Shown here: piece by piece, positions 1-52,284 of the stretch
Numbering within the stretch: the stretch's first letter is position 1
Layout: each line of letters begins with the position of its first letter
From: a virus
Direction: 5' to 3' (one strand)
DNA length: 64,000 nucleotides
Virus record (IMG/VR): IMGVR_UViG_3300048577_000133
Coordinates: 1 to 64,000 of that record
Notes under the pieces: model-generated
The model's input: only the letters and a program-made list of their open reading frames with translations
Told to the model about the DNA's origin: nothing
Database searches by the model: none
Translations under genes and position numbers: made by a program

Positions 1-810
1 CAACAACTTTTGATGCTGCGCTTGCAGCATTTACTGTTATTGCTTTCGTGCCTGTTACTCCCGAACCGTCGTTGGCTGTTGCCGATATTGTCACTGAACC
101 AGGCGCAATCAACGTTACAAGCCCGGAGCTGTTAACCGTTGCTTTTGCTGGATCAGAAGAACTCCACACCACTGACTGATTTGTCGCGTTGGAAGGCGTA
201 ATGGAGGCCGCTAACTGGATTGTACCACCAACCGTTCCAGCTGAATTACCTGAAACTGAAATAGCTGAAACTGCTATGTTTGATGCGCTTATCGTTATTG
301 CTTTCGTGCCTGTTACTCCCGAACCGTCGTTGGCTGTTGCCGATATTGTCACTGAACCAGGCGCAATCAACGTTACAAGCCCGGAACTGCTTACAGTCGC
401 TTTTGCTGGATCCGACGAGCTCCACACCACGTTTTTATTAGTTGCATTTGAAGGGGTTATTGAAGCAGCAAGCTGTATTGTTCCACCTACTGCACCGGTT
501 GCATTTCCTGAAACTGAAATAGCTGAAACAGCAATATTCACTTGATTTATAGTCAGTGCTTTAGTACCTGTTACTCCCGATCCATCGCTGGCAGTTGCCG
601 TAATAGTCACCGATCCGGCCGCAATGAGAGTGACAAGCCCGGAGCTGTTAACCGTTGCTTTTGCTGGATCAGAAGAACTCCACACCACTGACTGATTTGT
701 CGCATTTGAAGGGGTAACGGATGCCGCTAACTGGATTGTAGTTCCCATATTTCCAGACGAATTGCCGGTAACGGCAATCGCCGTTACCAGTACCGCATTG
801 GAAGCAGAAA
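1..810. repeat. Tandem 258-bp repeats (3 copies, starting about 37, 295 and 553), each encoding one Big_2 domain
   Basis: Long identical stretches, e.g. 37-125 vs 295-383 and 119-186 vs 637-704. A more diverged fourth domain lies at about 815-1020. Confidence 0.85.
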
Positions 811-2752
811 CAACATTTACAGATTGCTCAACAAACTTGGTATGATCTGCATTTGAAGTGACTCTGATTGTTGCACTGCCTATTGCTTTTGCTGTAATAA
901 GTCCATCTTTACTTATTTCAATCACTTCATTATCAGAAGATGAATAAGTTGCTGACTGATTTGAAGCATTTGAAGGCGTAGTTGCAATTGAAATCTGAGA
1001 TGTTTGATTCACAATAACTTGTGATGGAATCGTAGGCGTAAATACCGTCAAAGCAACCGGAATTGCAGTTGCCTTTGCAGCATTCAGTCTTGTCAAAAAT
1101 GGTGTTTGTAATGATGTATTTAATTTATTTACAAAAAACATCGCATCATTATAGTAATCAAGAAAAATAGTGCTTGCCGTTTTTGATTCAGCGATAGCGA
1201 CATATTTTTCTGCTAGTACAACCAAATTTGAATTGAATGAAGCATTGATTAACAATGCACTTCCCGAAGTCGCTTGTGACTGCTTAATACAATCAGCATA
1301 AATCCGCACATCGTAGGTATTGTCAATGCCTGAAATTAGTAGTGAGGCTTCCTTAAACTTAAAGAATTCAGGATTTGGAATTTCTACATCGAAAATCACT
1401 TTTGAACCTGAGAATGAATCAGCTGCATTGTCTTTTACTGAATTTACAGTGCGTAGAATTGTTGCATTTTTCCTTATATAAAGGTACTCAAACAACTCGT
1501 CTAAAGTTGCTGACCACATCGTATCAGAGCCATCGGCTCCGTATGTATCGTTAAGCCACATTAGACCGTCTTCACAAAAATCTTGTACCGCACCGGGGCT
1601 GATCTGGTGAGTTCTCATGTGCACTAGTTTCCCTGATCCTATCAGGCTAGTAACAACCGCTTTAAAGGTTTCAATTGTCCAGCTAAATTCGGCTGGAAAC
1701 ACTAATTTATCAATTGCGGTTATTGTCTTCAAATTAAGCGTCGATTGTGGAATAGCGTATGAATCATTCTCATCACAACCGGCCAGATAGTTTTTAAAAG
1801 CCCACATAGCTTCTACAAACTTATTATCACCATTCGGTCTACATTCCACCGTAGGAAGCTTACCGAGAAGTGTACTAATTGTAGATAAACTTTTAACCAG
1901 GGATTCATATTCTGTCGCTCCTTCCACCCCTGACTCATGCGTATAAACGCCTCCGAAAAAGTCAAAAAACGTTTGAATTTCTGCTTCAGAAATGTAAGGA
2001 TTCAAAAATCCTTGTGTTGATGCAATCCAGGACGCGATCGGAGCAATTCCAACCCGGACAGGCAACCTATTTCCGGTACCATCAGTGTGTCCTATTAACT
2101 TTCCGGCGTATTTACCTAACCGATAGTCTGCGTCGGATGAATCATGATAAGCATAACCTTTACTCCCAAAATAGTCAACGGTTCGTCTTGTCGAGGCATA
2201 CCTATTATTTACATATCGCTGAATCAATCCGTATATTCCGGTGTACCCGTCATCACTCGTTAGCGCGAAAACAAAGTCCTTGTTAAATTTTAAAGGGGCA
2301 ACAGTCATCTGTACTGTTGCAGGATCAACTGCTGTTGGAACACGAACAACAACCCGCATTTTATACGATTCTGGTTCCGTAACGGTAGCAGCTATCGTAT
2401 CAGGAACATTTTTCAAAACGCTGAAGTTTATTGCTGACGTTAGCGTATTAAGTAATGTAGCAATTCCAGCAGCATCAATATTTTGACCTGTTGGCAAATT
2501 CTTAAGCTTAGTATAATCAATTTTTAGTGCATCATTTGTAGCACCATTAATTGCTGTTATAATTGCCGAAAGCGATTGAAATGCAATATTGGTGACATTT
2601 GAAGCGTCAATCTTTCCAGCAGTTGATAAATTTTGAACTTTTGAATTGTATTCAGATATGATTGAATTGATCTTATTTACAATTAAATTTAGCTCATTTG
2701 CTGAGAGTTGTTCCCCCGTAACTTTTGTTGGTATTGATAATGATGTTACCAT
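1..2752 (-). CDS. Large virion-associated protein, 3' end cut by window edge (>917 aa); central NodB/CE4-like motifs; four C-terminal Big_2 Ig-like repeats
   Basis: Manual minus-strand translation from ATG 2752-2750 (2 nt after the upstream stop) stays open to position 1, which explains its absence from the ORF track. Repeats read TIQLAASITPSNATNQSVVWSSSDPAKATVNSSGLVTLIAPGSVTISATANDGSGVTGTKAIT (Big_2 signature). Central motifs are FALTSDDG, YTHESG and CRPNG. Confidence 0.7.
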   Translation of the reverse strand, partial: MVTSLSIPTKVTGEQLSANELNLIVNKINSIISEYNSKVQNLSTAGKIDASNVTNIAFQSLSAIITAINGATNDALKIDYTKLKNLPTGQNIDAAGIATLLNTLTSAINFSVLKNVPDTIAATVTEPESYKMRVVVRVPTAVDPATVQMTVAPLKFNKDFVFALTSDDGYTGIYGLIQRYVNNRYASTRRTVDYFGSKGYAYHDSSDADYRLGKYAGKLIGHTDGTGNRLPVRVGIAPIASWIASTQGFLNPYISEAEIQTFFDFFGGVYTHESGVEGATEYESLVKSLSTISTLLGKLPTVECRPNGDNKFVEAMWAFKNYLAGCDENDSYAIPQSTLNLKTITAIDKLVFPAEFSWTIETFKAVVTSLIGSGKLVHMRTHQISPGAVQDFCEDGLMWLNDTYGADGSDTMWSATLDELFEYLYIRKNATILRTVNSVKDNAADSFSGSKVIFDVEIPNPEFFKFKEASLLISGIDNTYDVRIYADCIKQSQATSGSALLINASFNSNLVVLAEKYVAIAESKTASTIFLDYYNDAMFFVNKLNTSLQTPFLTRLNAAKATAIPVALTVFTPTIPSQVIVNQTSQISIATTPSNASNQSATYSSSDNEVIEISKDGLITAKAIGSATIRVTSNADHTKFVEQSVNVVSASNAVLVTAIAVTGNSSGNMGTTIQLAASVTPSNATNQSVVWSSSDPAKATVNSSGLVTLIAAGSVTITATASDGSGVTGTKALTINQVNIAVSAISVSGNATGAVGGTIQLAASITPSNATNKNVVWSSSDPAKATVSSSGLVTLIAPGSVTISATANDGSGVTGTKAITISASNIAVSAISVSGNSAGTVGGTIQLAASITPSNATNQSVVWSSSDPAKATVNSSGLVTLIAPGSVTISATANDGSGVTGTKAITVNAASAASKVV

Positions 2753-2754
2753 AT

Positions 2755-3405
2755 TTATTCACTTTTAAAATTGACAGTTGAGTTAAGAAGCGTGTCTTTC
2801 GTTGTTTTTATTGTCAATCCAAATTGAGTAAACTTTGCAACTGATCCTACTTCCTTTTGTCCTACCAGGTCAACATTTTCAACTCGGAATCGATACCCTC
2901 TCTCATACCAATCTTTGAAAGAGACATTGAATGGTTCTTGTCTTTCGATTGTAAACTCTCCGGTTATTTCTCCACTTTCATTGAAAGCTTTTAGAGTTGC
3001 AGATTTTCCAAATGTTTCGGCAATCATTTGTTCACACTTGGTAATTATCCTTTCTTCACGGGTTATGTACACAATTTGAAAATATAGGTCAAAAAGCGTG
3101 TCAGGATTCTTGACCACTTTGAACCGGTCACCGTCTGGAACGTTTTTATAACCTCCTATCGCTCCAATGCTGGAAGGCATGACATAGACAAAACTTACAA
3201 CGATGGTGTTTTCATTCTTATGTTTCTTGCTCTTGTATTGTCCCCCGCCCATGACTTCAATCAGATCACCAATTTCGGTCTTTGCTTCTTCATATCCAGC
3301 TTCGTTATTCGGTAAATACTGTAGTATGTCAGGGATATACCCCTTACTGACTGCAATAGTTCTAATTGCATCAAGTATTCCCATTCCGATTTCTTCTATT
3401 GTCAT
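2755..3405 (-). CDS. Hypothetical neck/tail structural protein (216 aa)
   Basis: ORF overlaps the upstream stop (3402-3405) and lies in the head-to-tail joining block. No motif recognised. Confidence 0.5.
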   Translation of the reverse strand: MTIEEIGMGILDAIRTIAVSKGYIPDILQYLPNNEAGYEEAKTEIGDLIEVMGGGQYKSKKHKNENTIVVSFVYVMPSSIGAIGGYKNVPDGDRFKVVKNPDTLFDLYFQIVYITREERIITKCEQMIAETFGKSATLKAFNESGEITGEFTIERQEPFNVSFKDWYERGYRFRVENVDLVGQKEVGSVAKFTQFGLTIKTTKDTLLNSTVNFKSE

Positions 3406-4909: not shown

Positions 4910-5185
4910 TTATTTTTTTGCTTTCTTAACCTCAGGTGCTTCAACCACCGGCGTTTCAACCTCAGGGACTTTAACCACAGGTGTTTCAACCTCAGGGACT
5001 TCAACCTCAGGTGCTTCAACTACAGGGGCTTCAACCTCAATAAACAATCTGCTTGCAATGCCGCGCTGAACATACGGAGTGTAATTAACTTCTTTAATAT
5101 CGCTTCGTGAAAGAGTTATTCCCTCTTGAGCGTTGTGGTGACTACCTGACGTGTCGCGTAACTGAATGAAAATTTTTTTACTCAT
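4910..5185 (-). CDS. Small protein with C-terminal P-E-V-E/T-P-V-V tandem repeats (91 aa)
   Basis: ORF lies between two hairpins directly after the capsid gene. Its tail reads EAPVVEAPEVEVPEVETPVVKVPEVETPVVEAPEVKKAKK. Confidence 0.6.
   Translation of the reverse strand: MSKKIFIQLRDTSGSHHNAQEGITLSRSDIKEVNYTPYVQRGIASRLFIEVEAPVVEAPEVEVPEVETPVVKVPEVETPVVEAPEVKKAKK
4913..5035. repeat. Short tandem DNA repeats (CTTCAACCTCAGG-type, about 15/30 nt) encoding the PEVE repeats
   Basis: Repeated cttcaacctcaggtg/ggact units are visible in 4921-5040. Confidence 0.7.
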
Positions 5186-5237: not shown

Positions 5238-6533
5238 TTACAATAAATTTTCAAATGATTTCGAAATACGGGCATCAATATCCATGTAGGATGGGAACCC
5301 GTCAGTTGCAATCGATTTGCTCTTATCAACAATCAAACGACCATCTCGCTGAACAATAAAGAACCCAACATGTTTTGACACAAAAATTTCGTCAGTCTGG
5401 TTTTGTGGGTTGCGTCGTTTTTCAGTCATCATAGAACCGTAGTTTAATGCGTCCATTGCTTTGTTCGGATCAATCAACATAATTTGACCGGCTGGCATTG
5501 TAAAGATGTCATTAACCAATGTTGGAGGAACACCCAGGATTGTTCGAAAATCTACTTTTTGTGTTTGACCGGCAAACCCAGCGAATTGCTGAAGTTCAGA
5601 CAATTCAATGCCATCATCTTCCGAAGTAATTAACCGGGTACAATCCCTTTTCAAGCGGCTCATGCGACCAAACGATTTCCGAAGGTCTTTATATGTGAAC
5701 GACCCTGCTGTCTTTACACCAATCACCGGGGCAGATTGTGATCCGTCTGACTGTTCTCCATTAATAAGGATGTTGAACGCTTCAACGTCAGTGGCAATAG
5801 CCATATCAACACCAACTTCAGCTAATGCTTTGAAAAGCAAAGAAATTTTTGTGTTGGCCACCATTTCGTCAGTCATGGCAAAACCACAACCAATCTTGAA
5901 AGTTTCAACATTCTTTTGCCCAAATGTTACGGTACCAAAAGGAATACTTTCAGCTTCACCGATTCGGCGCGGAATCATCTCACCTTTTTTAATCAATGGA
6001 ACTACAGCTTTTGTATTTCCTACCAGGTTGTGAGTTGTACCAATCCAGTTAATGTAATTGATGGCAGCTTCATAATCCTGATAAATTGGAGCTAAAATAA
6101 GTTCTGGAATCAAAAAACGATAAGCCTCGTTGAAATCTTTGGTATTTGCAACAAACGAAGTATGATTATTCAACATGTCGGTCAAATTGTTTTTGTCCAA
6201 AACACCGGCATAACCTAATCGTTTTGCAATACTTCCAAGCGAATCTGTTGTAACATAAATACCAATTTGCGTTAAGTATTTTTGCAACGAAACACCATAG
6301 CGGTATTTAATCGCTTCAGAAAGAGAAATGTCACGACCTGGTATTTCAGCACCATTACTGTCACGTGCTGCTCCTTTACGAACGTCAACAACTTCACCCA
6401 CTAAAGAACCAAAATCTGATTGATAGTTGTCACGTACTTTTGTTGCAGAAAGCTCCCCTTGCTCATTTGCCATAACACTTTTATTGTGTTTTCGCAAAGA
6501 CTGCAATTCTTCAAAACTCAATTTTTCTGGCAT
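5238..6533 (-). CDS. Putative major capsid protein (431 aa)
   Basis: Size and position (scaffold/protease, then decoration, then this ORF), followed by a strong hairpin. No motif verified by eye. Confidence 0.6.
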   Translation of the reverse strand: MPEKLSFEELQSLRKHNKSVMANEQGELSATKVRDNYQSDFGSLVGEVVDVRKGAARDSNGAEIPGRDISLSEAIKYRYGVSLQKYLTQIGIYVTTDSLGSIAKRLGYAGVLDKNNLTDMLNNHTSFVANTKDFNEAYRFLIPELILAPIYQDYEAAINYINWIGTTHNLVGNTKAVVPLIKKGEMIPRRIGEAESIPFGTVTFGQKNVETFKIGCGFAMTDEMVANTKISLLFKALAEVGVDMAIATDVEAFNILINGEQSDGSQSAPVIGVKTAGSFTYKDLRKSFGRMSRLKRDCTRLITSEDDGIELSELQQFAGFAGQTQKVDFRTILGVPPTLVNDIFTMPAGQIMLIDPNKAMDALNYGSMMTEKRRNPQNQTDEIFVSKHVGFFIVQRDGRLIVDKSKSIATDGFPSYMDIDARISKSFENLL

Positions 6534-12942: not shown

Positions 12943-13473
12943 TTAAATCAATTTAATTTTTCCGCGAATTTCAAGATAACTTTTTTCTGTTTCGCCCCAT
13001 GGCACGGGGAAGTAAATTAAATCTGCTGCGCTTTTTATGTTGCCTTTCCCGGTTTTGATAAAGAAGTTAGCAAATTTATTTAGGTTTTCCGATCCGGGGC
13101 CGATTTTCTTACTAATTACGTTTAGCACCGAATTTTTGGGCAATTGATATTTTGTTTCATTGTAAATATCAGATGCCGAAACGCGGTACGTTTCGCATAA
13201 ATACGGTATGTTGCAAGCTGCAACTTTTGACTTGTCGAACCCAAAAGTCATACCTTCAGGCATCAATTGTTTCGGGGTCCAAATATTTGCCCCGACATTT
13301 TTAAGGACCAGCGCAATGCTGTTTATCGCATCGAGTGACGGGTTTTTAAATCCGTTTGCCCAGTTGCGCCACGCCATCACCGTGAACCCGGTTTGAGAAA
13401 GAAGCCATTCCCGGTCCTTATTTACCGTAACCAGGTAGGCTTTTACAATTTGAATAAATGTTTTGTTATTCAT
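12943..13473 (-). CDS. Putative tandem HTH (XRE-like) regulator
   Basis: Two HTH-like segments (LLSQTGFTVMAWRNWANGFKNPSLDAINSIALVL and YLCETYRVSASDIYNETKYQLPKNSVLNVISKKIG). Start taken at ATG 13473. Confidence 0.5.
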   Translation of the reverse strand: MNNKTFIQIVKAYLVTVNKDREWLLSQTGFTVMAWRNWANGFKNPSLDAINSIALVLKNVGANIWTPKQLMPEGMTFGFDKSKVAACNIPYLCETYRVSASDIYNETKYQLPKNSVLNVISKKIGPGSENLNKFANFFIKTGKGNIKSAADLIYFPVPWGETEKSYLEIRGKIKLI

Positions 13474-13657
13474 TGTTTTGCTTTTTATTAACATTTTTAT
13501 TAGAGTAAATTTGATATAGAACGCATACGCAATATATTACTGCAAACAACAACATGCTAAAAAAGCTTATTATCTTAATAGTTGCATTGATATTTGAAAA
13601 TGGAATTGTTGATAAAATTACAATAATTATCAGCAAATAGTTAATGTTAAATTTCAT
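13466..13657 (-). CDS. Small two-TM membrane protein (63 aa)
   Basis: Hydrophobic segments LLIIIVILSTIPF and FFSMLLFAVIYCVCVLY. Confidence 0.45.
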   Translation of the reverse strand: MKFNINYLLIIIVILSTIPFSNINATIKIISFFSMLLFAVIYCVCVLYQIYSNKNVNKKQNNE

Positions 13658-13720
13658 AATCTTAAATTTTATTGCCTTTACTGTTTTTCCTACTCTTTTA
13701 AGGATTTTCGGAATACTCCT

Positions 13721-13737
13721 GAATTGTTAAACAATTC
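13721..13737. promoter_or_regulatory. Perfect palindrome GAATTGTT-A-AACAATTC (operator-like)
   Basis: 8-bp arms with a 1-nt spacer, in the intergenic region upstream of the 63-aa and HTH genes. Confidence 0.4.
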
Positions 13738-25003: not shown

Positions 25004-25942
25004 TTACTTTGTCACTCGTTGATAGTCAAATATAATAACACGTTCTGGATTCTTTACCTCAGTAGGAGAACCCTTTCTATTACGAATCGAAAACAACAAT
25101 TTAAAAAAATCATTTGAAGGGTATTTTGTACAAAGCATTTCAATTTCTTCATCAGTAAATTTAAATTCCTTTTTCAAAATAATTCTCATTCGTTCCTGAT
25201 CTTCAGAGCTGTTAACTGGAGGAATTTCTACAACTTCATTTTGTTCTGCTTCAACAATCGATACAATCATGAATTTAACCGAAACAATATTTCGGCCCAC
25301 CTTTATAGGCTGATAGTCTATTTTGATTCCAGTCTTTTCATTTATCGTTTGTTTTGATGGTTCCAAAACACGCTTTTTAAAGTCATTGAATTCTGAATAT
25401 TTCCCTGGGTGAATCATCATTCTTGAACGAAGATCCTCAATGCTTAAAACAATAGTTTTTACCCGTTTATTCTTGATCTGACAAATTAAATCCCAAATTT
25501 CATGTACATATACGCTTTGAAATATGGAACTGCTTAAAAGCTGTTTAGTGTATTGTTTGCCATGAAGTTTGACAAAATGATTTTTTGCCATGTTGGTAAG
25601 GTAAAACCGAACACCCATGTTGTTGTGTAGAAAAACAGTCTCTCCTATCAAGCTGTCAATACTCAAACCTTCGCTGGCAATGTCAACAACCTCAATAGAT
25701 TTCATTGTTCGAAATACCTGCCTGAATTGTTCAAAATTGGTCACTGTTATACCCATAAGCTCCGATATTTCCCGAAGCTGAAAATCTATAAAATCAATAT
25801 CACTATTCAGCTTAATCTTTGTCAGGATAACATTCAAAACGTTTCGTTGGGCCGCTGTCAAATGCTTTGGACTATTTATATAATCGTTACTTTTCGCAAT
25901 GTAACGTTTTGGTTTTGGTGTGTCTAGTGTTTGTGCTTCCAT
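25004..25942 (-). CDS. Rep_3-family plasmid replication initiator
   Basis: YIAKSNDYINSPKHLTAAQRNVLNVILTKI and YSEFNDFKKRVLEPSKQTINEKTGIKIDYQPIKVGRNIVSVKF match the Rep_3 (PF01051) pattern. Iterons lie upstream. Start taken at ATG 25942. Confidence 0.85.
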   Translation of the reverse strand: MEAQTLDTPKPKRYIAKSNDYINSPKHLTAAQRNVLNVILTKIKLNSDIDFIDFQLREISELMGITVTNFEQFRQVFRTMKSIEVVDIASEGLSIDSLIGETVFLHNNMGVRFYLTNMAKNHFVKLHGKQYTKQLLSSSIFQSVYVHEIWDLICQIKNKRVKTIVLSIEDLRSRMMIHPGKYSEFNDFKKRVLEPSKQTINEKTGIKIDYQPIKVGRNIVSVKFMIVSIVEAEQNEVVEIPPVNSSEDQERMRIILKKEFKFTDEEIEMLCTKYPSNDFFKLLFSIRNRKGSPTEVKNPERVIIFDYQRVTK

Positions 25943-25996
25943 GAGTGTAATTTTAACAAATACATTTCTAATAATCAATTGTATTTTATTAACATG

Positions 25997-26024
25997 CAAC
26001 AAATATGCAATTACAATTTTGTGA
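25997..26024 (-). promoter_or_regulatory. Degenerate copy of the promoter motif upstream of rep
   Basis: caacaaatatgcaattacaattttgtga. Confidence 0.4.
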
Positions 26025-26074: not shown

Positions 26075-26341
26075 ATGTAAAGTGTCCGGCCATTTATGTA
26101 TTCTGTCCGGCTATTATTTTGTTAATTATACTTATTTATTTTATTTTGTCTTAAAAATCAACGTTTTGAGAAATAAAAAAAGATATTAACAAGTTAAAAA
26201 TCATGTAAAAATGGTGTTTATGTAGATTGTCCGGTTTCGCATGTAAAATGTCCGCTCTTCGCATGTAAAGTGTCCGGTTGTCAAATGTAATCCGTCCGGC
26301 TATTAATGTAAATTGTCCGGTTATTAATGTAAATTGTCCGG
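26075..26341. repeat. Iteron array (8 copies of ATGTAAAnTGTCCGG) flanking an AT-rich segment: putative oriV
   Basis: Copies start at 26075, 26096, 26220, 26241, 26263, 26285, 26306 and 26327 (21-22 bp phasing). AT-rich stretch at 26111-26219. Confidence 0.85.
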
Positions 26342-26447
26342 TTATGCCCTTTCAGATATTTATAAATCAATCTGTTACGACGCTGAAAATATTATAAAAT
26401 AAAAGAAAATAAGAAAAAAAAGAAATACGGAAAAACCTAAAAACATT

Positions 26448-26783: not shown

Positions 26784-27554
26784 TTACACGTTTACATGAT
26801 TAATTGATTTACTTAAAACAAGGTTTACGAATTCGCTGTAATCCTTTGCCCCATTGCTTTCTGGCGCATATTCAAAAATAGATTTTTTTTGTGTTATCGC
26901 TTCGCTTATCGCAATATTCCTGCGGATCATGCTCGAAAAAACCCTGTCACCATATTGCTCTTTCAGGATATTTATAATGTCCCGGTTTAAAACTGTACCC
27001 TGGGTCATGGTTAAAAGAATCCCTGAAATGTCAATCGTACTGTCCGACATTTCCCTGATGAGAGCCAATACATCAGAAAGCTTTGCCAATCCTTTGTATG
27101 GCAGCAATTCTGCTTGCATAGGTACATAAACCTCATTCGACGCAATAAGAGCATTTAGTGTGAGAACACCAAGCGACGGCGGGCAATCAATCAAAACAAA
27201 GTCAAAACCGTCTATCTTTTGCAGGATCTTCTTCAGAACTAAATCCCTCGAAGGAATTGAATTCATTTCCGTTTCGGCCCCTGCCAGATCAATCGAACTG
27301 GGCAGGATGAAAAGATTTTCAGTTACTTTTAACGGGGTCGGGTTCTTTGCCTTCATGGTCATGTAGTGATACATGTTTTTGCCTTCAATTGTGCTGCTTT
27401 CAGAAATTTCAAGGCTATCAGTTAAGTTGGCCTGAGCATCCATATCAACCAGTAAAACTTTCTTCCCGGCATTGGCCAAACCATAACCCAGGTTAAGGGT
27501 TGTAGTTGTCTTTCCGGTACCGCCCTTGTGCTGGGCAATGCTAATTACTTTCAT
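26784..27554 (-). CDS. parA: ParA-family partition ATPase
   Basis: Deviant Walker A KGGTGKTTTTLNLG, DMDAQANLT and VLIDCPPSLG. Confidence 0.9.
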   Translation of the reverse strand: MKVISIAQHKGGTGKTTTTLNLGYGLANAGKKVLLVDMDAQANLTDSLEISESSTIEGKNMYHYMTMKAKNPTPLKVTENLFILPSSIDLAGAETEMNSIPSRDLVLKKILQKIDGFDFVLIDCPPSLGVLTLNALIASNEVYVPMQAELLPYKGLAKLSDVLALIREMSDSTIDISGILLTMTQGTVLNRDIINILKEQYGDRVFSSMIRRNIAISEAITQKKSIFEYAPESNGAKDYSEFVNLVLSKSINHVNV

Positions 27555-33259: not shown

Positions 33260-33287
33260 TACAAAACAATTAAATGATATTTTTCAA

Positions 33288-33319
33288 ATAAAAAAAACCG
33301 GACTAATTCTAATCCGGTT
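33288..33319 (-). terminator. Rho-independent terminator
   Basis: Minus strand AACCGGATTAGAATTAGTCCGGTT followed by TTTTTTTTATTTG. Confidence 0.8.
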
Positions 33320-33421
33320 TAATGGCTATTGTTGGGTGTACATCTGTTTAACTCATTTCAATTCCTAAAAGGTTCGATTGTAATTACACCCCAGTAAGTA
33401 TCTAAATAATTTTAAACATAA

Positions 33422-33841
33422 TTACTTTGCACAACAGTATTTATACTTCTTTCCCGATCCACACGGACACGGCCTATTCCTGAATATTTTGGGCTCTGTA
33501 CGAACCGGAATGATAATTGCTTCACGTTTTTTCTTTGTCAAGTGTGAGTACTTCATGTCGAACATTTCAATTTCTGGCAATTCTGGACGTGCTGTATAAG
33601 GTAATATCGTTGGTTCTGGCAATATACCTACCTCGATCAATTCCTCATTCGAATGCTGAATCTCATCAATTGAATGAATGTGTTCAACTCTATTTGCACA
33701 TATACCGTGTGCCGTTGCTATTGCTGAAGCCACTGCGGATACACCTGGTCCAGAACCAACTAAAACAACTTTTCTATTTACATGATCACCCCAAATCTTA
33801 CGGTGTTCTTCCAAATTTCCAATATGCAATTTTTCTTCCAT
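33422..33841 (-). CDS. SEC-C motif protein (139 aa)
   Basis: C-terminal CPCGSGKKYKYCC. The N-terminal domain is unrecognised. Confidence 0.6.
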   Translation of the reverse strand: MEEKLHIGNLEEHRKIWGDHVNRKVVLVGSGPGVSAVASAIATAHGICANRVEHIHSIDEIQHSNEELIEVGILPEPTILPYTARPELPEIEMFDMKYSHLTKKKREAIIIPVRTEPKIFRNRPCPCGSGKKYKYCCAK

Positions 33842-33959
33842 CGCTTAGTTTTTTACTTCATCAACGCCTATCCGGTTGTATTTCCCAGAAAACAGAATCG
33901 CCCATTTCGAACTGTACTTTTCTGCCTTATCGGCGTTGACTTTTTCTTAATAAAGGTTG

Positions 33960-34048
33960 TGGAACCGGAAGGATTCGAACCTTCGCCTTATGCACTGACT
34001 AAGTCAGATATTACGAGAACGCACCTTAAAAATTATTTTCACAGTTCC
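33960..34048 (-). tRNA. tRNA-like element 1 (89 nt), anticodon arm not foldable by eye
   Basis: Acceptor GGAACTG/CGGTTCC (one G-U pair) and canonical T arm GAAGG-TTCGAAT-CCTTC. An internal CTGAC-TTA-GTCAG hairpin and an A/T-only D region make it non-canonical. Confidence 0.4.
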
Positions 34049-34139
34049 ATCCAGCACTTTACCCAAGTACACAGGGAGACAGTTTTCCTTATATTTTTCA
34101 GATATTAAAGAAAATCTAAAAAACAAACTTTTATCTGTG

Positions 34140-34228
34140 TGCCTGATACTGGATTTAAACCAGTATCCTTTTCCCTCCGGGGAAACATTTCGGTGTAAAA
34201 GCCACTCTATCAATTGAGCTAATCAGGC
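34140..34228 (-). tRNA. tRNA-like element 2 (89 nt) with long variable arm, degenerate anticodon arm
   Basis: Perfect acceptor GCCTGAT/ATCAGGC, D arm GCTC-AATTGATA-GAGT, variable hairpin TTTCCC-CGGA-GGGAAA and T arm ACTGG-TTTAAAT-CCAGT. The anticodon region GCTTTTACACCGAAATG pairs at only 3 bp. Confidence 0.4.
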
Positions 34229-34331
34229 ATTTTTTGCCCCGGATGAATAACCAAAACCGGGGCATTGCATTTAGCGGGCAATATTATCTGAATCTCATTT
34301 CGTCGCTCCTTTCTAGTTAGTTAGTAAATTT

Positions 34332-35114
34332 TTAAAATAACTTCAATTGCGAAATATGCCAGTTATACCGGTTTTCCTGATCTTCGTAATACTTCGAATC
34401 AATCTCAGTACCAACAAAATTCAAATTCAAATCATAACAAACAATTCTTTGGCTTCCAGAACCTAAATGAGTATCGAGTATCTTGTAACCAGGTTTAGCA
34501 AACCGTGAAAGCAAATACTTATACACTTCAAACGGTTTTTCAGTCGGATGAATTCGCTTTTGGTTCTTTTCTTTAAACGGATTCATTACGGTACCTTCTC
34601 TAAATGATTTACCTTGCATCATTCCAGACCACATGAAATAAAATACCTCAGTCGGTACTGGAAACGAAACCCACACTAATTCACAGTCATTAAACCCTGT
34701 TGTTGAATTCACTTTGTCCCAAATAATCCAGTTTGTCGGATGATCTTTGATGAACTGTTCGTATTCGTGCCGTCTGGGTGTTTTAAACTCAGTGCTGCAA
34801 ATTGCCGGGAAATAATTGGCTCCGAATATGATTTGATGTTCTGTTACCCGCTTTAACTCTGTGAAATATTCGTCACCTGTCTTTTGCTGATCCCACAAAG
34901 CATTGTGATACTCTTTTGAGTTAGTCGCCCGGCTCCGGCTTTTGTTATTCCGGTGGCTGTTACCATCTATGCCATAAACAGGATCCACACTACCAATGTC
35001 AAAAAACTGATCTGGAAAGCTTTTGGTTATTATTTTGTAGTCCTCATTAAATGTGAGGGAAAAACACCCGTTTTTGTCGAGTTGCAGGATTTGACGCTGT
35101 AATTGATCAATCAT
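34332..35114 (-). CDS. N4/N6 DNA methyltransferase (PF01555-type, 260 aa)
   Basis: SVDPVYG (DPPY-like), HPTEKP and LDTHLGSGS. Confidence 0.8.
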   Translation of the reverse strand: MIDQLQRQILQLDKNGCFSLTFNEDYKIITKSFPDQFFDIGSVDPVYGIDGNSHRNNKSRSRATNSKEYHNALWDQQKTGDEYFTELKRVTEHQIIFGANYFPAICSTEFKTPRRHEYEQFIKDHPTNWIIWDKVNSTTGFNDCELVWVSFPVPTEVFYFMWSGMMQGKSFREGTVMNPFKEKNQKRIHPTEKPFEVYKYLLSRFAKPGYKILDTHLGSGSQRIVCYDLNLNFVGTEIDSKYYEDQENRYNWHISQLKLF

Positions 35115-36678: not shown

Positions 36679-36704
36679 TACAAATATATGTATTGTATTT
36701 GTAA
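36679..36704 (-). promoter_or_regulatory. Extended early/middle promoter motif copy
   Basis: tacaaatatatgtattgtatttgtaa. Confidence 0.65.
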
Positions 36705-36730
36705 TTACAAGCAAATAATACAAAATATTT

Positions 36731-44294: not shown

Positions 44295-44831
44295 CTAAAT
44301 ATTTTGTTGCTTTAAAATTTCAACTTTTTCATATTTTTCTTTAAGTTTTGTTATTCTGCTGTCAAGTTTAGATTCGTTTGAAATTTCAAGTGTTGTTTTT
44401 ATTTTACCATTTAGCAAAAGAAACAATCGAACTCCAGAAGTTGGATTATTTCTTACAATTGGTTGTTCGGAATGAGTAAACTCTTCTGACCATTTTTTTT
44501 CTCTTGCTGCTTTCTTTTTGCGTTCTTCAAGCAATTGTTTTAGTTGTTTTTTTCGCGCAAGAACTTTTTTACCTTCCTCAATAAACCCAAAAATTGAACA
44601 CGCCTGAACCTTACGGCCCCTTTTACCAGCTTGTTTAATTCTTGTGTCCTTATTTTTTTTCTTCAGATTCAAAGATTTTAAATACTTTCTTATCGAATCT
44701 GATGTTCGTCCCATTTCAATAGATAATTCATTGAATGTTTTATCTTTATAATTAGCTCTCAAATATTCTTCTTCCAAAGAACTCCAAGGTTTATATTTAT
44801 TGATACATTCCATATTGCTAGAATAAATCAA
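44295..44831 (-). CDS. Hypothetical basic protein, possible Myb/SANT-like HTH (178 aa)
   Basis: WSSLEEEYLRANYKDKTFNELSIEMGRTSDSIRKYL. Confidence 0.5.
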   Translation of the reverse strand: MIYSSNMECINKYKPWSSLEEEYLRANYKDKTFNELSIEMGRTSDSIRKYLKSLNLKKKNKDTRIKQAGKRGRKVQACSIFGFIEEGKKVLARKKQLKQLLEERKKKAAREKKWSEEFTHSEQPIVRNNPTSGVRLFLLLNGKIKTTLEISNESKLDSRITKLKEKYEKVEILKQQNI

Positions 44832-46332
44832 TTTCTAAATTTACGCCAAATTGCTCATTAATCTCATTAAGCAATTTAGCTGTATCAATAGCAAAATCAC
44901 CAGCAATTGAAGTTACAATTTCAAATGATTCACTATTTACTTGTAATCCTTTTAGCATGAAAGCCTGTAGCGTAAATTCGAGCTCTTTAATCGTTTTATC
45001 TCCTGCATTTTTAATGTTGTGATAAACAGTATTAATACAAGCAATCCGATCATTTAATTGATCTTCATCAATTGTTGTATAATTTGGAGCTGTCATCCAA
45101 TTCCTTGCTTCTGCAATTTCAATCCTGTCAGAAAGTGGTAATGCAAGAAACAAACTGATAACGTTTGCAATTCGAAAACCTCTCGGAATACCATTAAATT
45201 CGTTAATAGTAACCTCGCGAACTACGTTTCCAAGCAAATCATTTACAAATTTTATTTTCGCTTCTTTAAGGGGTTTTGCATCAGGATTTTGTTTTTCAAT
45301 TTGTTTTTCTCCCTGTAGCAATTTAACTTCTTTGTTGTATTCATTGCGCTGATCATCAGAAAGAATATCAACATACCGGCCAACTTTGCCAAAACTGTCA
45401 ACGATCAATGCAATTGACTGCCTGGTATGATTCTTTACTGCCTCTTTGGGAATTTGAATAAATTCTGAAAGTAACCGGACGCCTTTTTCTTGCCGGTCTT
45501 TTTCAGACAACCACCTGTCAGATACTTTTATTACTTCAACACCAAGACCTTCCCAACTTTTTTTAAGGCTTTCAATGTGATTGACAACTTTAGACTGATA
45601 ACAATTTTTGTCAAAACAAATATCTGAAGCCTCATATCCTTCAAAAAGCCTGTTTGTGCTACCTGATCTTTTTGTACAATCAGTACAAGCCCCGGCACCT
45701 AAAAGCAATGATTCATCATTTACCATAAAAGGAGCATTTGCAAGTTTTAAATTAAAATGCTTTTTAATTAACTCCCTTAGTTCATTTAATGAAAATCCAT
45801 CTCCCCACATTTCAAAAAGTTCTTTTTGATCAGTTGGTGTTAATCTGATTAATTCCTTTGCGTGCGAAACCTGAAGAATTCCATCCTGTAGCTTATTTAC
45901 AAATTCAGGAATTAGCAAACTTAAATTAATACGATCGTAGACATATTTTAATGACCGCCCAATACGGTCCGATAATTCTTCAATTGTAAATCCACGATCT
46001 TTTAATTCCAGCAAAGCTTGCATTTCTTCATAGGCAGTAAGATCACGCCTCTGAATGTTTTCTGTAAGATGAATAATTGTTTCTTCATGCTCAGTAAGAT
46101 TTTCAAAAACCTTTGCATCGATCGTCTTCATTTTATTGACTACGCAGGCTCTTAATCTACGCTCTCCATACAGTAAGCGGTACTTTTTACCATCTGGAAT
46201 GATTCCAATCGGTTGGATAAGACCTACTGATTTGATACTGGCTGCAAGCTCCTGAATCGCTTCAGGGATAAATAACTTTCGAGAATTGTTAGGTACAACA
46301 ATTTCATTAATACTGATTTTCTTCAGTTCCAT
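44818..46332 (-). CDS. Large ParB-domain protein (504 aa from ATG 46332)
   Basis: ISINEIVVPNNSRK...ELAASIKSVGLIQPIGII...YRLLYGERRLRA. Confidence 0.7.
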   Translation of the reverse strand: MELKKISINEIVVPNNSRKLFIPEAIQELAASIKSVGLIQPIGIIPDGKKYRLLYGERRLRACVVNKMKTIDAKVFENLTEHEETIIHLTENIQRRDLTAYEEMQALLELKDRGFTIEELSDRIGRSLKYVYDRINLSLLIPEFVNKLQDGILQVSHAKELIRLTPTDQKELFEMWGDGFSLNELRELIKKHFNLKLANAPFMVNDESLLLGAGACTDCTKRSGSTNRLFEGYEASDICFDKNCYQSKVVNHIESLKKSWEGLGVEVIKVSDRWLSEKDRQEKGVRLLSEFIQIPKEAVKNHTRQSIALIVDSFGKVGRYVDILSDDQRNEYNKEVKLLQGEKQIEKQNPDAKPLKEAKIKFVNDLLGNVVREVTINEFNGIPRGFRIANVISLFLALPLSDRIEIAEARNWMTAPNYTTIDEDQLNDRIACINTVYHNIKNAGDKTIKELEFTLQAFMLKGLQVNSESFEIVTSIAGDFAIDTAKLLNEINEQFGVNLEIDLF

Positions 46333-46367
46333 ATTTTCCGGTTTTAGTGTAAATTTTATATTTGAAT

Positions 46368-46444
46368 ATATGTATAACATATACTGCAAAAGTGGAATAC
46401 ACGGCTAAAAGTGGAAAATATTTCCGCATTTAAGCCGCATTTAA
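46368..46444. repeat. Palindrome plus two pairs of direct repeats upstream of the ParB-like gene
   Basis: ATATGT-ATA-ACATAT (46368-46382); AAAAGTGGAA at 46388 and 46407; CCGCATTTAA at 46424 and 46435. Confidence 0.6.
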
Positions 46445-52260: not shown

Positions 52261-52284
52261 ACAAATATAACTACTATATTTGTA
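52261..52284 (-). promoter_or_regulatory. Extended early/middle promoter motif copy
   Basis: acaaatataactactatatttgta. Confidence 0.7.

Follow-up and report, generated by a model that had tools for sequence, protein, structure and literature searches.

Transfer RNAs (tRNAs) encoded by phages are usually explained by codon supply or, as has been argued recently, by the replacement of tRNAs that host defences have cleaved. The bacterial Y-RNA-like YrlA and other mimics imitate the acceptor, T and D region of tRNA without decoding. In phage T4, the stable small RNAs RNAC and RNAD arise from the tRNA gene region and their roles are still unknown (PMC3014915), and genome surveys have placed another small RNA, SpF41 (RF02435), in strain-exclusive regions as a candidate for horizontal transfer (PMC6064168, PMC9569102). 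Here we describe two tandem 89-nt tRNA-like elements in a 64,000-nt stretch of viral DNA (positions 1 to 64,000 of IMG/VR record IMGVR_UViG_3300048577_000133; hereafter the window), which keep a flawless acceptor stem and T arm and lack an anticodon arm. They are similar to certain tRNA-like small RNAs of phages, a known class that is little studied and poorly understood, and SpF41 is their best described analogue. In the reading that we favour, and to which we give about an even chance, they are tRNA-derived, non-decoding mimics that would be transcribed in an accessory operon, excised by the host and occupy a tRNA-binding factor.

The SpF41 consensus combines a closing stem of 7(+2) bp with a D-like stretch left unpaired, a hairpin of 5 bp and a 4-nt loop, a T arm that contains GGUUCGAAUCC, and a terminator, and SpF41 itself is a tRNA-like RNA that lacks an anticodon. 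BLAST of the consensus retrieves 27 records of Streptococcus temperate phages and satellite phages, in which SpF41 is either unannotated or hidden under a 'hypothetical protein' coding sequence (CDS). In Streptococcus phage Javan115 (MK448671.1, 15643-15751; L198, 3500-3608), SpF41 scores 101.6 bits with its own model and 24.5 bits with the tRNA model, and is located between a DNA modification methylase gene and terS. A role of SpF41 in packaging or late expression is worth testing, because phages and satellites carry it close to packaging genes.

In the window, both elements lie on the minus strand of a 490-nt gap (33842-34331), element 2 at 34228-34140 (located by scan and Rfam) and element 1 at 34048-33960 (located by scan and RNAfold). 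An earlier note on this DNA had proposed two such minus-strand elements of 89 nt, each with a 7-bp acceptor stem and a T arm, in the largest non-coding gap, and both statements hold. The gap is the largest in the 64-kb window, and the stretch 1-2754, free of open reading frames (ORFs) at first sight, is a single long open frame that extends past the window's edge. A custom scan of both strands, which combined a T-arm pattern (G53, a TTYRANN loop, C61 and a 5-bp T stem) with a 7/7 acceptor stem directly adjoining the T arm and closing 66-100 nt, found exactly two sites, namely elements 1 and 2 at these coordinates. Each of them spans 88 nt from position 1 to 72 and carries A73. Since 300 first-order Markov simulations rarely give such sites (a mean of 0.067 matches per window, with two or more matches in 1/300), the observation is real and far from chance. 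In both elements the 7-bp acceptor stem is stacked on the 5-bp T stem, which is closed by a canonical 7-nt T-loop (UUUAAAU in element 2 and UUCGAAU in element 1), and all pairs form.

Element 2 is the more complete of the two, and its RNA reads GCCUGAU-UA-GCUC-AAUUGAUA-GAGU-G-[33 nt]-AGGAU-ACUGG-UUUAAAU-CCAGU-AUCAGGC-A. It passes the Rfam tRNA model (RF00005) with 41.4 bits against a gathering threshold of 29. By coordinates read from the sequence, its acceptor stem GCCTGAT/ATCAGGC occupies 34228-34222 and 34147-34141 on the minus strand, with the D arm GCTC-AATTGATA-GAGT at 34219-34204, the 5-nt variable loop AGGAT at 34169-34165, the T arm ACTGG-TTTAAAT-CCAGT at 34164-34148 and the discriminator A73 at 34140. 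As read off the Rfam alignment, the tertiary pairs U8:A14, G18:U55, G26:A44, U54:A58 and G53:C61 are kept, and so are the Levitt pair A15:U48 and C13:G22 with G46. The elbow carries A19:U56 instead of G19:C56, a compensated change of both sides that also occurs in canonical phage tRNAs (a tRNA-Arg (UCU) in L032, and L058), and the 22-nt D-arm region is identical at 22/22 positions to the tRNA-Pro of Pectobacterium phage My1. Because the tertiary pairs are kept and both A19:U56 and the D arm are shared with phage tRNAs, the body of element 2 appears to be that of a genuine, foldable tRNA in which every class-I tertiary interaction is present.

What sets element 2 apart from a tRNA is confined to one block. 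In the Rfam alignment, 33 nt (34202-34170, minus strand) occupy the place of the 17-nt anticodon arm. The 5' part of this replacement is a 17-nt stretch, GCUUUUACACCGAAAUG, which is predicted to be unpaired in both the minimum-energy and the centroid structure of RNAfold, and the remainder folds in RNAfold into a 6-bp hairpin, UUUCCC-CGGA-GGGAAA (34185-34170, minus strand), which ends exactly at position 43. The earlier note had seen a near-canonical D arm and a 6-bp variable arm in this element; the D arm and a 6-bp hairpin are present and its structural description was right. When every contiguous deletion of 0-29 nt in the replacement region was enumerated, none yielded a canonical anticodon arm, that is, a 5-bp stem with a Y32-U33...R37 loop. 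The nearest miss requires the removal of one U, which gives the stem GCUUU/AAAGU with the loop UACACCG (A33, C37), and ARAGORN calls this shortened form a type II tRNA-Val(CAC).

In element 1, the resemblance to tRNA is confined to the acceptor, the T arm and A73. The RNA, GGAACUG-[57 nt]-GAAGG-UUCGAAU-CCUUC-CGGUUCC-A, is an acceptor/T-arm minihelix, with the acceptor GGAACTG/CGGTTCC at 34048-34042 and 33967-33961, the T arm GAAGG-TTCGAAT-CCTTC at 33984-33968 and the discriminator A73 at 33960, all on the minus strand. RNAfold places three small hairpins in the 57-nt core, the first made of A/U pairs, the others UGCG-UUCU-CGUA (34023-34012, minus strand) and CUGAC-UUA-GUCAG (33995 to 34007, minus strand), and shows no recognisable D arm or G18G19. 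The sole match of element 1 in a permissive Rfam scan of the gap is a weak one, to the two ends of the transfer-messenger RNA (tmRNA) model RF00023, where its tRNA-like domain lies, at 16.6 bits against a threshold of 47, and its score with the tRNA model is lower than that and below the RF00005 threshold of 29. According to the earlier note, scores below the Rfam threshold for both elements, combined with a lack of conservation, would have spoken against tRNA-like elements. Of this, the part on scores applies to element 1 and not to element 2, which is above the threshold, and the part on conservation applies to both, as neither element is found in any relative.

At default settings ARAGORN reports 0 tRNAs and 0 tmRNAs in the whole window, and with its intron options it returns low-score calls only, at relaxed thresholds. 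Deletions of 1-49 nt at all positions of element 1 likewise produce no ARAGORN tRNA call. By ARAGORN, RNAfold and the deletion scans, neither element holds a 5-bp/7-nt anticodon arm with U33 and purine 37, and the earlier note's statement that no canonical arm can be folded is borne out by the silence of ARAGORN, the 33-nt insert in the Rfam alignment and the negative deletion scans.

These results bear directly on the possibility that the elements are working decoding tRNAs with odd anticodon arms, such as a suppressor, a type II tRNA, a quadruplet reader or an intron-bearing tRNA. Such a reading could draw on the score of element 2 above the Rfam tRNA threshold, on its U42, which, if bulged out, would allow a 5-bp stem GCUUU/AAA(U)GU followed by a long variable arm (the form lacking one nucleotide being called tRNA-Val(CAC)), and on the UUA within a hairpin loop of element 1. 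It is nevertheless very improbable and already largely refuted: ARAGORN is silent by default, U33 and purine 37 are absent from the loops (UACACCG in element 2 and a 3-nt loop in element 1), the code is standard with TAA as the commonest stop, and no intron position restores a canonical arm. To our knowledge, short protein-spliced introns are not bacterial. The UUA suppressor that the earlier note had considered for element 1 would have a loop, ACUUAGU, with C33 and not U, and it fails because the phage uses the standard code, under which coding sequence takes up 89% of the window, and mostly stops at TAA (ORFs end in TAA 61 times, in TGA 19 times and in TAG 15 times). The phage needs no suppressor, and an ochre suppressor would be harmful, as it would read through most of the phage's own genes. 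A suppressor of the recoded-phage kind was also rejected, since all three stops terminate ORFs and there is no canonical anticodon loop. The type II decoding tRNA of the same note is not supported either, as no deletion restores a canonical loop in element 2 or an ARAGORN call in element 1.

Compared with the canonical tRNA (RF00005), both elements thus share the acceptor, the T arm and A73, and element 2 alone adds the D arm, a 5-nt variable loop and all tertiary pairs, whereas both lack the 5-bp/7-nt anticodon arm and element 1 also lacks the D arm. Element 1 resembles the tRNA-like domain of tmRNA (RF00023) in having an acceptor and a T arm, no anticodon arm and a degenerate D region. However, its 3:70 pair is A:U and not the G:U identity pair of alanine, CCA is not encoded, and with 89 nt the element is too short for a tag reading frame or pseudoknots. 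With A3:U70, this length, the 16.6 bits against 47 and no tmRNA call by ARAGORN, tmRNA was rejected as an identity. Membership of tmRNA or Y RNA, models that the earlier note had named for a covariance scan, finds no support in the Rfam scan of the gap, where the Y_RNA, YrlA, tRNA-Sec and viral tRNA-like-structure models give no match at E<=10. The locus also differs from that of YrlA in the absence of any Ro/Rsr-like protein from the scanned ORFs (about 60, searched with Pfam, PHROGs, PADLOC and NCBIfam); no TROVE/Ro domain occurs in this set, some small ORFs being outside the scan. Compared by description, T4 RNAC and RNAD are similar as phage-encoded small RNAs alongside tRNA-type genes, but they lie within a cluster of eight genuine tRNAs, while the phage of the window has none.

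The closest likeness is to SpF41, in which a 7-bp acceptor-like closing stem adjoins a T arm containing GGUUCGAAUCC, an anticodon loop is missing, and a short hairpin with a 4-nt loop takes the place of the anticodon arm. When the model consensus is compared with the folds, elements 1 and 2 have this layout, and SpF41 is likewise carried by phages, as well as by satellites. In the permissive Rfam scan of the gap, the alignment of element 2 with the SpF41 model runs from one end to the other and scores 25.6 bits (threshold 52), and element 1 has no match to this model. With these scores set against the 101.6 bits of the true member in Javan115, membership of the SpF41 family was rejected. The two also differ in build and in setting, since SpF41 has no D stem and has a strong terminator of its own, whereas in element 2 both the D arm and the tertiary core are complete, 17 unpaired nucleotides are inserted, and the element is located inside an operon without a real terminator. 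The hosts of SpF41 are Firmicutes, in contrast to the Bacteroidota here.

All genes of the window are on the minus strand, and its G+C content is about 36%. Phage genes (TerL, capsid, a Mu-F-like protein and baseplate J) occur together with plasmid-type genes, namely a Rep3 initiator (25004-26002), ParA (26784-27554) and ParB (44818-46389), and there are several DNA methyltransferases besides. Upstream of the Rep3-family initiator, about six iterons of 21-22 nt (ATGTAAAnTGTCCGG...) are found at 26075-26345. With its iterons, Rep3 and partition genes, this tailed phage of Bacteroidota, of about 72 kb, looks like a phage-plasmid.

Phage attachment (att) sites often overlap the T arm and the acceptor 3' end of tRNA genes, and the earlier note had named an att-type remnant among its options. 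As a DNA-level attP site, or as the remnant of an integration site, the elements would copy the 3' part of a host tRNA, with which the fully canonical T arm of element 1 would agree. We find this hardly credible. The acceptor stems are two-stranded in both elements, which points to full-length units and not to 3' fragments, the 22-nt 3' end of element 1 has 0 matches in GTDB, represented by one genome for each of 185,579 species, and no integrase is present among the roughly 60 ORFs scanned. Rep3 with its iterons, ParA and ParB point instead to plasmid-like maintenance. Three findings in combination argue against an att origin: a tRNA end that matches element 1 is missing from every sampled species, each acceptor stem has both its strands, and the phage has maintenance genes of plasmid type. 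Nor was a host genome found in which this phage, as a prophage, flanks a tRNA with a 3' half identical to either element.

The elements are placed between two genes of the same strand. Upstream is a gene for an N6/N4 DNA methyltransferase (34332-35114, minus strand; PF01555 at 7.7e-14 and phrog_23224 at 1.9e-45) and downstream a 139-aa ORF with a C-terminal SEC-C zinc motif (33422-33841, minus strand); ORFs overlapping the gap on either strand have no family matches. A motif scan finds a Bacteroidota-type promoter, TTTG-N-TAnnTTTG, at 36681-36715 on the minus strand, which most likely drives the operon with both elements, and no TAnnTTTG on either strand between 33300 and 35200. The operon ends at an intrinsic terminator, CCGGATTAGAATTAGTCCGG followed by T8 (33290-33320, minus strand), the sole strong minus-strand terminator between 36800 and 33150. 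Because the gap has no promoter and a single strong terminator lies downstream, the elements most likely share a transcript with the methyltransferase gene, the SEC-C-motif ORF and four small ORFs upstream, as far as can be predicted from these signals.

Three further features on the minus strand flank the elements. Directly 5' of element 2, sequence and fold reveal a G+C-rich hairpin, GCCCCGG-N14-CCGGGGC, followed by AAAAAAU (34236-34263), and a cut by RNase P at position +1 of element 2 would leave this hairpin as the 3' end of the methyltransferase mRNA. The two elements are separated by an A+T-rich spacer of 91 nt (34049-34139), in which a weak hairpin with a U-run after it, together at 34138-34118, stays below terminator criteria. 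Between element 1 and the SEC-C-motif ORF is a structured leader (33860-33940) with an RNAfold z-score of -2.5 and an inverted repeat, where a 9-bp closing stem, GUCAACGCC/GGCGUUGAU, encloses two hairpins; Rfam returns nothing for this leader but a chance-level PreQ1 match nearby. No meaningful internal repeats occur beyond the stems of the elements, and complementarity of the unpaired stretches to phage transcripts does not exceed 10-11 nt, which is the chance level for an antisense target.

Elsewhere in the phage, an intergenic cassette recurs in which a terminator is combined with a Bacteroidota-type promoter (ACAAAAATAGTATTTATATTTG) and a leader rich in A and C (AAACACTAAAACACATAAACAC). 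It is found on the minus strand of the window at 52283, 47736, 33257, 28528, 23539 and 18949, minus-strand promoters of this type include those at 36715 and 33265, and a sub-threshold Rfam match to SpF36 at 33277-33325 is the terminator part of a cassette. The cassette also occurs in relatives (L152, 7630-7770 and 12215-12360; L154, 9320-9440), and as it is conserved while the relatives differ in the genes between its copies, it seems to delimit blocks of genes that can be swapped.

The position of the elements inside an operon, between two ORFs and with no promoter of their own, would also suit purely cis-acting processing signals. The minihelices would then do no more than recruit RNase P and 3' enzymes. 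Cuts in the polycistronic transcript would make the stability and translation of the methyltransferase mRNA independent of those of the SEC-C ORF mRNA, and the excised RNAs would be by-products. In favour of this, cleavage would leave the upstream mRNA capped by the stable hairpin with A6U that directly precedes element 2, the stretch after element 1 folds as a structured leader, and element 1 retains just the part of a tRNA that RNase P needs. On the other hand, one element would suffice for this and there are two, 180 nt apart, the full tertiary core of element 2 (G26:A44, the Levitt pair) is not required for processing, and other junctions in the phage use plain terminator-promoter cassettes. 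We therefore regard a role in cis only as rather improbable.

Searches for relatives outside this phage give a uniform picture. With the gap and each element as blastn queries, GenBank phages and PLSDB plasmids yield nothing or generic matches to tRNA D and T arms, and exact and degenerate pattern scans of IMG/VR give nothing relevant, with a 15-mer T-arm pattern hitting canonical tRNAs and chance matches, and a pattern of D-loop, long gap and T-loop hitting 8 chance matches. One metagenome scan yields 24 loci, 0 of them homologous and several being intron-bearing or expanded tRNAs, and two GTDB genome scans yield 0 matches. The flanking genes are similarly isolated, as the 139-aa SEC-C ORF protein has no homologue but itself among 5.8 billion proteins, and homologues of the methyltransferase, at <=72% identity, lie in unrelated phage contexts with no comparable gap after them. 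The wider TerL family at 50% identity lacks the module and has no tRNA-like elements. The elements are orphans inside a variable accessory module.

Several side observations came out of these searches. In relatives at 50% TerL identity, IS605-family TnpA/TnpB (OrfB, Cas12f-like) genes are inserted just downstream of TerL (L187, 12621-14349; L188, 12666-13841; L190, 5565-7290), in the same variable region where the window has its tRNA-like module. The metagenome loci include tRNA bodies with 30-45-nt anticodon regions that ARAGORN misses by default. Three of them, with compensatory stem changes, read as tRNA-Thr(CGU) with a 12-13-nt intron at 37/38 (minus strand; L164, 514-598; L165, 12317-12401; L167, 5518-5602), and other such loci, among them L163, L169, L174, L175 and L178, make up the CCGGAYG... 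and AGTCAGG... families. In IMG/VR viral contigs that share the SEC-C motif (L017-L020, 3482-4038), a tRNA-Met adjoins a tmRNA gene with the tag peptide ...VVAFAA.

A number of these and other findings weigh against functional mimics. Homologues are missing from GenBank phages, PLSDB, IMG/VR, the metagenome and GTDB, so that neither covariation nor conservation backs a function. Two JGI metagenomes contain the only other copies (L026 and L027), which match the window at 100% identity along their full lengths of 4.4 and 2.8 kb. The closest TerL relatives (L152-L154, 84-85% identity) are without the module: they match the DNA of the window on the TerL side and on the ParA/Rep3 side, nothing in them matches 36669-33302, and they have no tRNA-like match. 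Across 214 kb from 18 related loci there are 0 tRNAs and 0 acceptor/T-arm elements. No partner protein (Ro-like, ligase, synthetase-like or CCA-adding enzyme) and no other RNA-handling enzyme is found among the approximately 60 scanned ORFs, and the intact core of element 2 could be that of a working tRNA that was disrupted recently.

This last point leads to the main rival of mimicry, a serious one that we still consider unlikely, namely that the elements are decaying tRNA genes which were acquired horizontally with the methyltransferase module, knocked out when sequence was inserted or replaced in the anticodon region (element 2) or the core (element 1), and are now inert. Decay stays alive as an explanation because no relative carries the elements. 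The phage family is without any tRNAs and the closest relatives are without the module, which suggests a recent lineage-specific acquisition, conservation of the elements was not found, and the phage needs no extra tRNA or suppressor. The 22/22 identity with the tRNA-Pro of My1 in the D-arm region also makes the body of element 2 look like that of an ordinary phage tRNA. However, decay should strike stems as often as the core, while 24/24 acceptor and T stem pairs are intact across both elements, both T-loops are of the canonical kind, and element 2 has kept every one of its tertiary pairs. Nothing in the core of element 1 resembles a tRNA any longer, yet its 31-nt minihelix is perfect, and no single deletion restores a tRNA.

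The distribution of changes speaks for non-decoding mimics. The same reading is favoured by the improbability of the two sites, the score of element 2 above the tRNA threshold in spite of its insert, its kept tertiary pairs, the equal 88-nt spans with A73, and the lack of an internal promoter combined with a single terminator downstream. The deviations from tRNA fall in one block (element 2) or take up the whole core (element 1) and leave the 31-nt acceptor and T arm flawless, a pattern that, judged from the two sequences, uniform neutral decay would not be expected to give. SpF41 is a precedent, one copy of which also adjoins a DNA methylase gene. Of the earlier note's readings, mimicry and decay are the two that remain, as the suppressor and att readings have failed and the type II reading has found no support.

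The stacked 12 bp of acceptor and T stem, the T-loop and A73 form the recognition unit of RNase P, of 3'-processing enzymes and of the CCA-adding enzyme. Both elements carry the sequence requirements of the processing enzymes, that is, the 12-bp stack, the T-loop and A73, and element 2 has the whole D/T elbow in addition. As non-decoding mimics, the elements would be part of an operon transcript running from the promoter at ~36715 to the terminator at ~33300. Because the processing enzymes recognise the acceptor/T stack, the T-loop and A73, host RNase P and 3' enzymes could be expected to excise stable RNAs of ~89 nt (~92 nt with CCA), and the same cuts would part the methyltransferase mRNA, with its protective hairpin end, from the SEC-C ORF mRNA. 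With no anticodon loop, the RNAs could not work on the ribosome. They would instead act as mimics or sponges that occupy a tRNA-binding factor, perhaps a host factor in the conflict between phage and host, a target that we favour because of the neighbouring methyltransferases and the variable accessory region around the elements. What we infer in this scheme is that the RNAs are processed, stable and active in trans, and what they target.

A narrower version of the scheme, which we think quite improbable, is that the pair are purpose-built, anticodon-less decoys that soak up a defence factor of the host with a specificity for the acceptor/T-arm half of tRNA. They would be released from an anti-restriction-type accessory operon by the tRNA-processing enzymes of the host, and their target would be, for example, a tRNA-sensing nuclease or a toxin acting on tRNA 3' ends by modification or cleavage.

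Apart from the tRNA-like module, other features of the window deserve mention. A DUF805b RNA motif (RF02914) at 13687-13721 on the minus strand, with 47.7 bits against a threshold of 35.6, lies in a 189-nt gap; the ORF downstream of this gap (12943-13494, 183 aa) has no Pfam match. A 258-nt tandem repeat at 36-740, with 2.7 copies and 80% matches, corresponds to an 86-aa repeated domain and is located inside the open frame 1-2760 (minus strand), which has more than 919 codons and runs off the start of the window. Nested tandem repeats of 15/30/45 nt (AACCACAGGCGTTTC and variants) are found at 4928-5039, just upstream, in the sense of transcription, of a capsid-like gene (5238-6533).

The anatomy of these strain-specific orphans is striking and easy to test. 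If they are decaying tRNA genes, they offer a caution that a 41-bit 'tRNA' match to a covariance model does not prove a working tRNA. Standard annotation is blind to elements of this kind, as ARAGORN is silent here and SpF41-type elements are unannotated or lie under CDSs in the Streptococcus records of GenBank. RNAs that have the enzyme-recognition half of a tRNA but no decoding half fit neither codon supply nor the replacement of cleaved tRNAs, and point to mimicry or RNA processing. If functional, the elements would provide a compact, testable system of two 89-nt RNAs in one operon and a Bacteroidota host. If the decoy role were true, it would amount to RNA counter-defence by mimicry and not by the replacement of cleaved tRNAs, and would suggest the same job for SpF41-type RNAs in Streptococcus phages.

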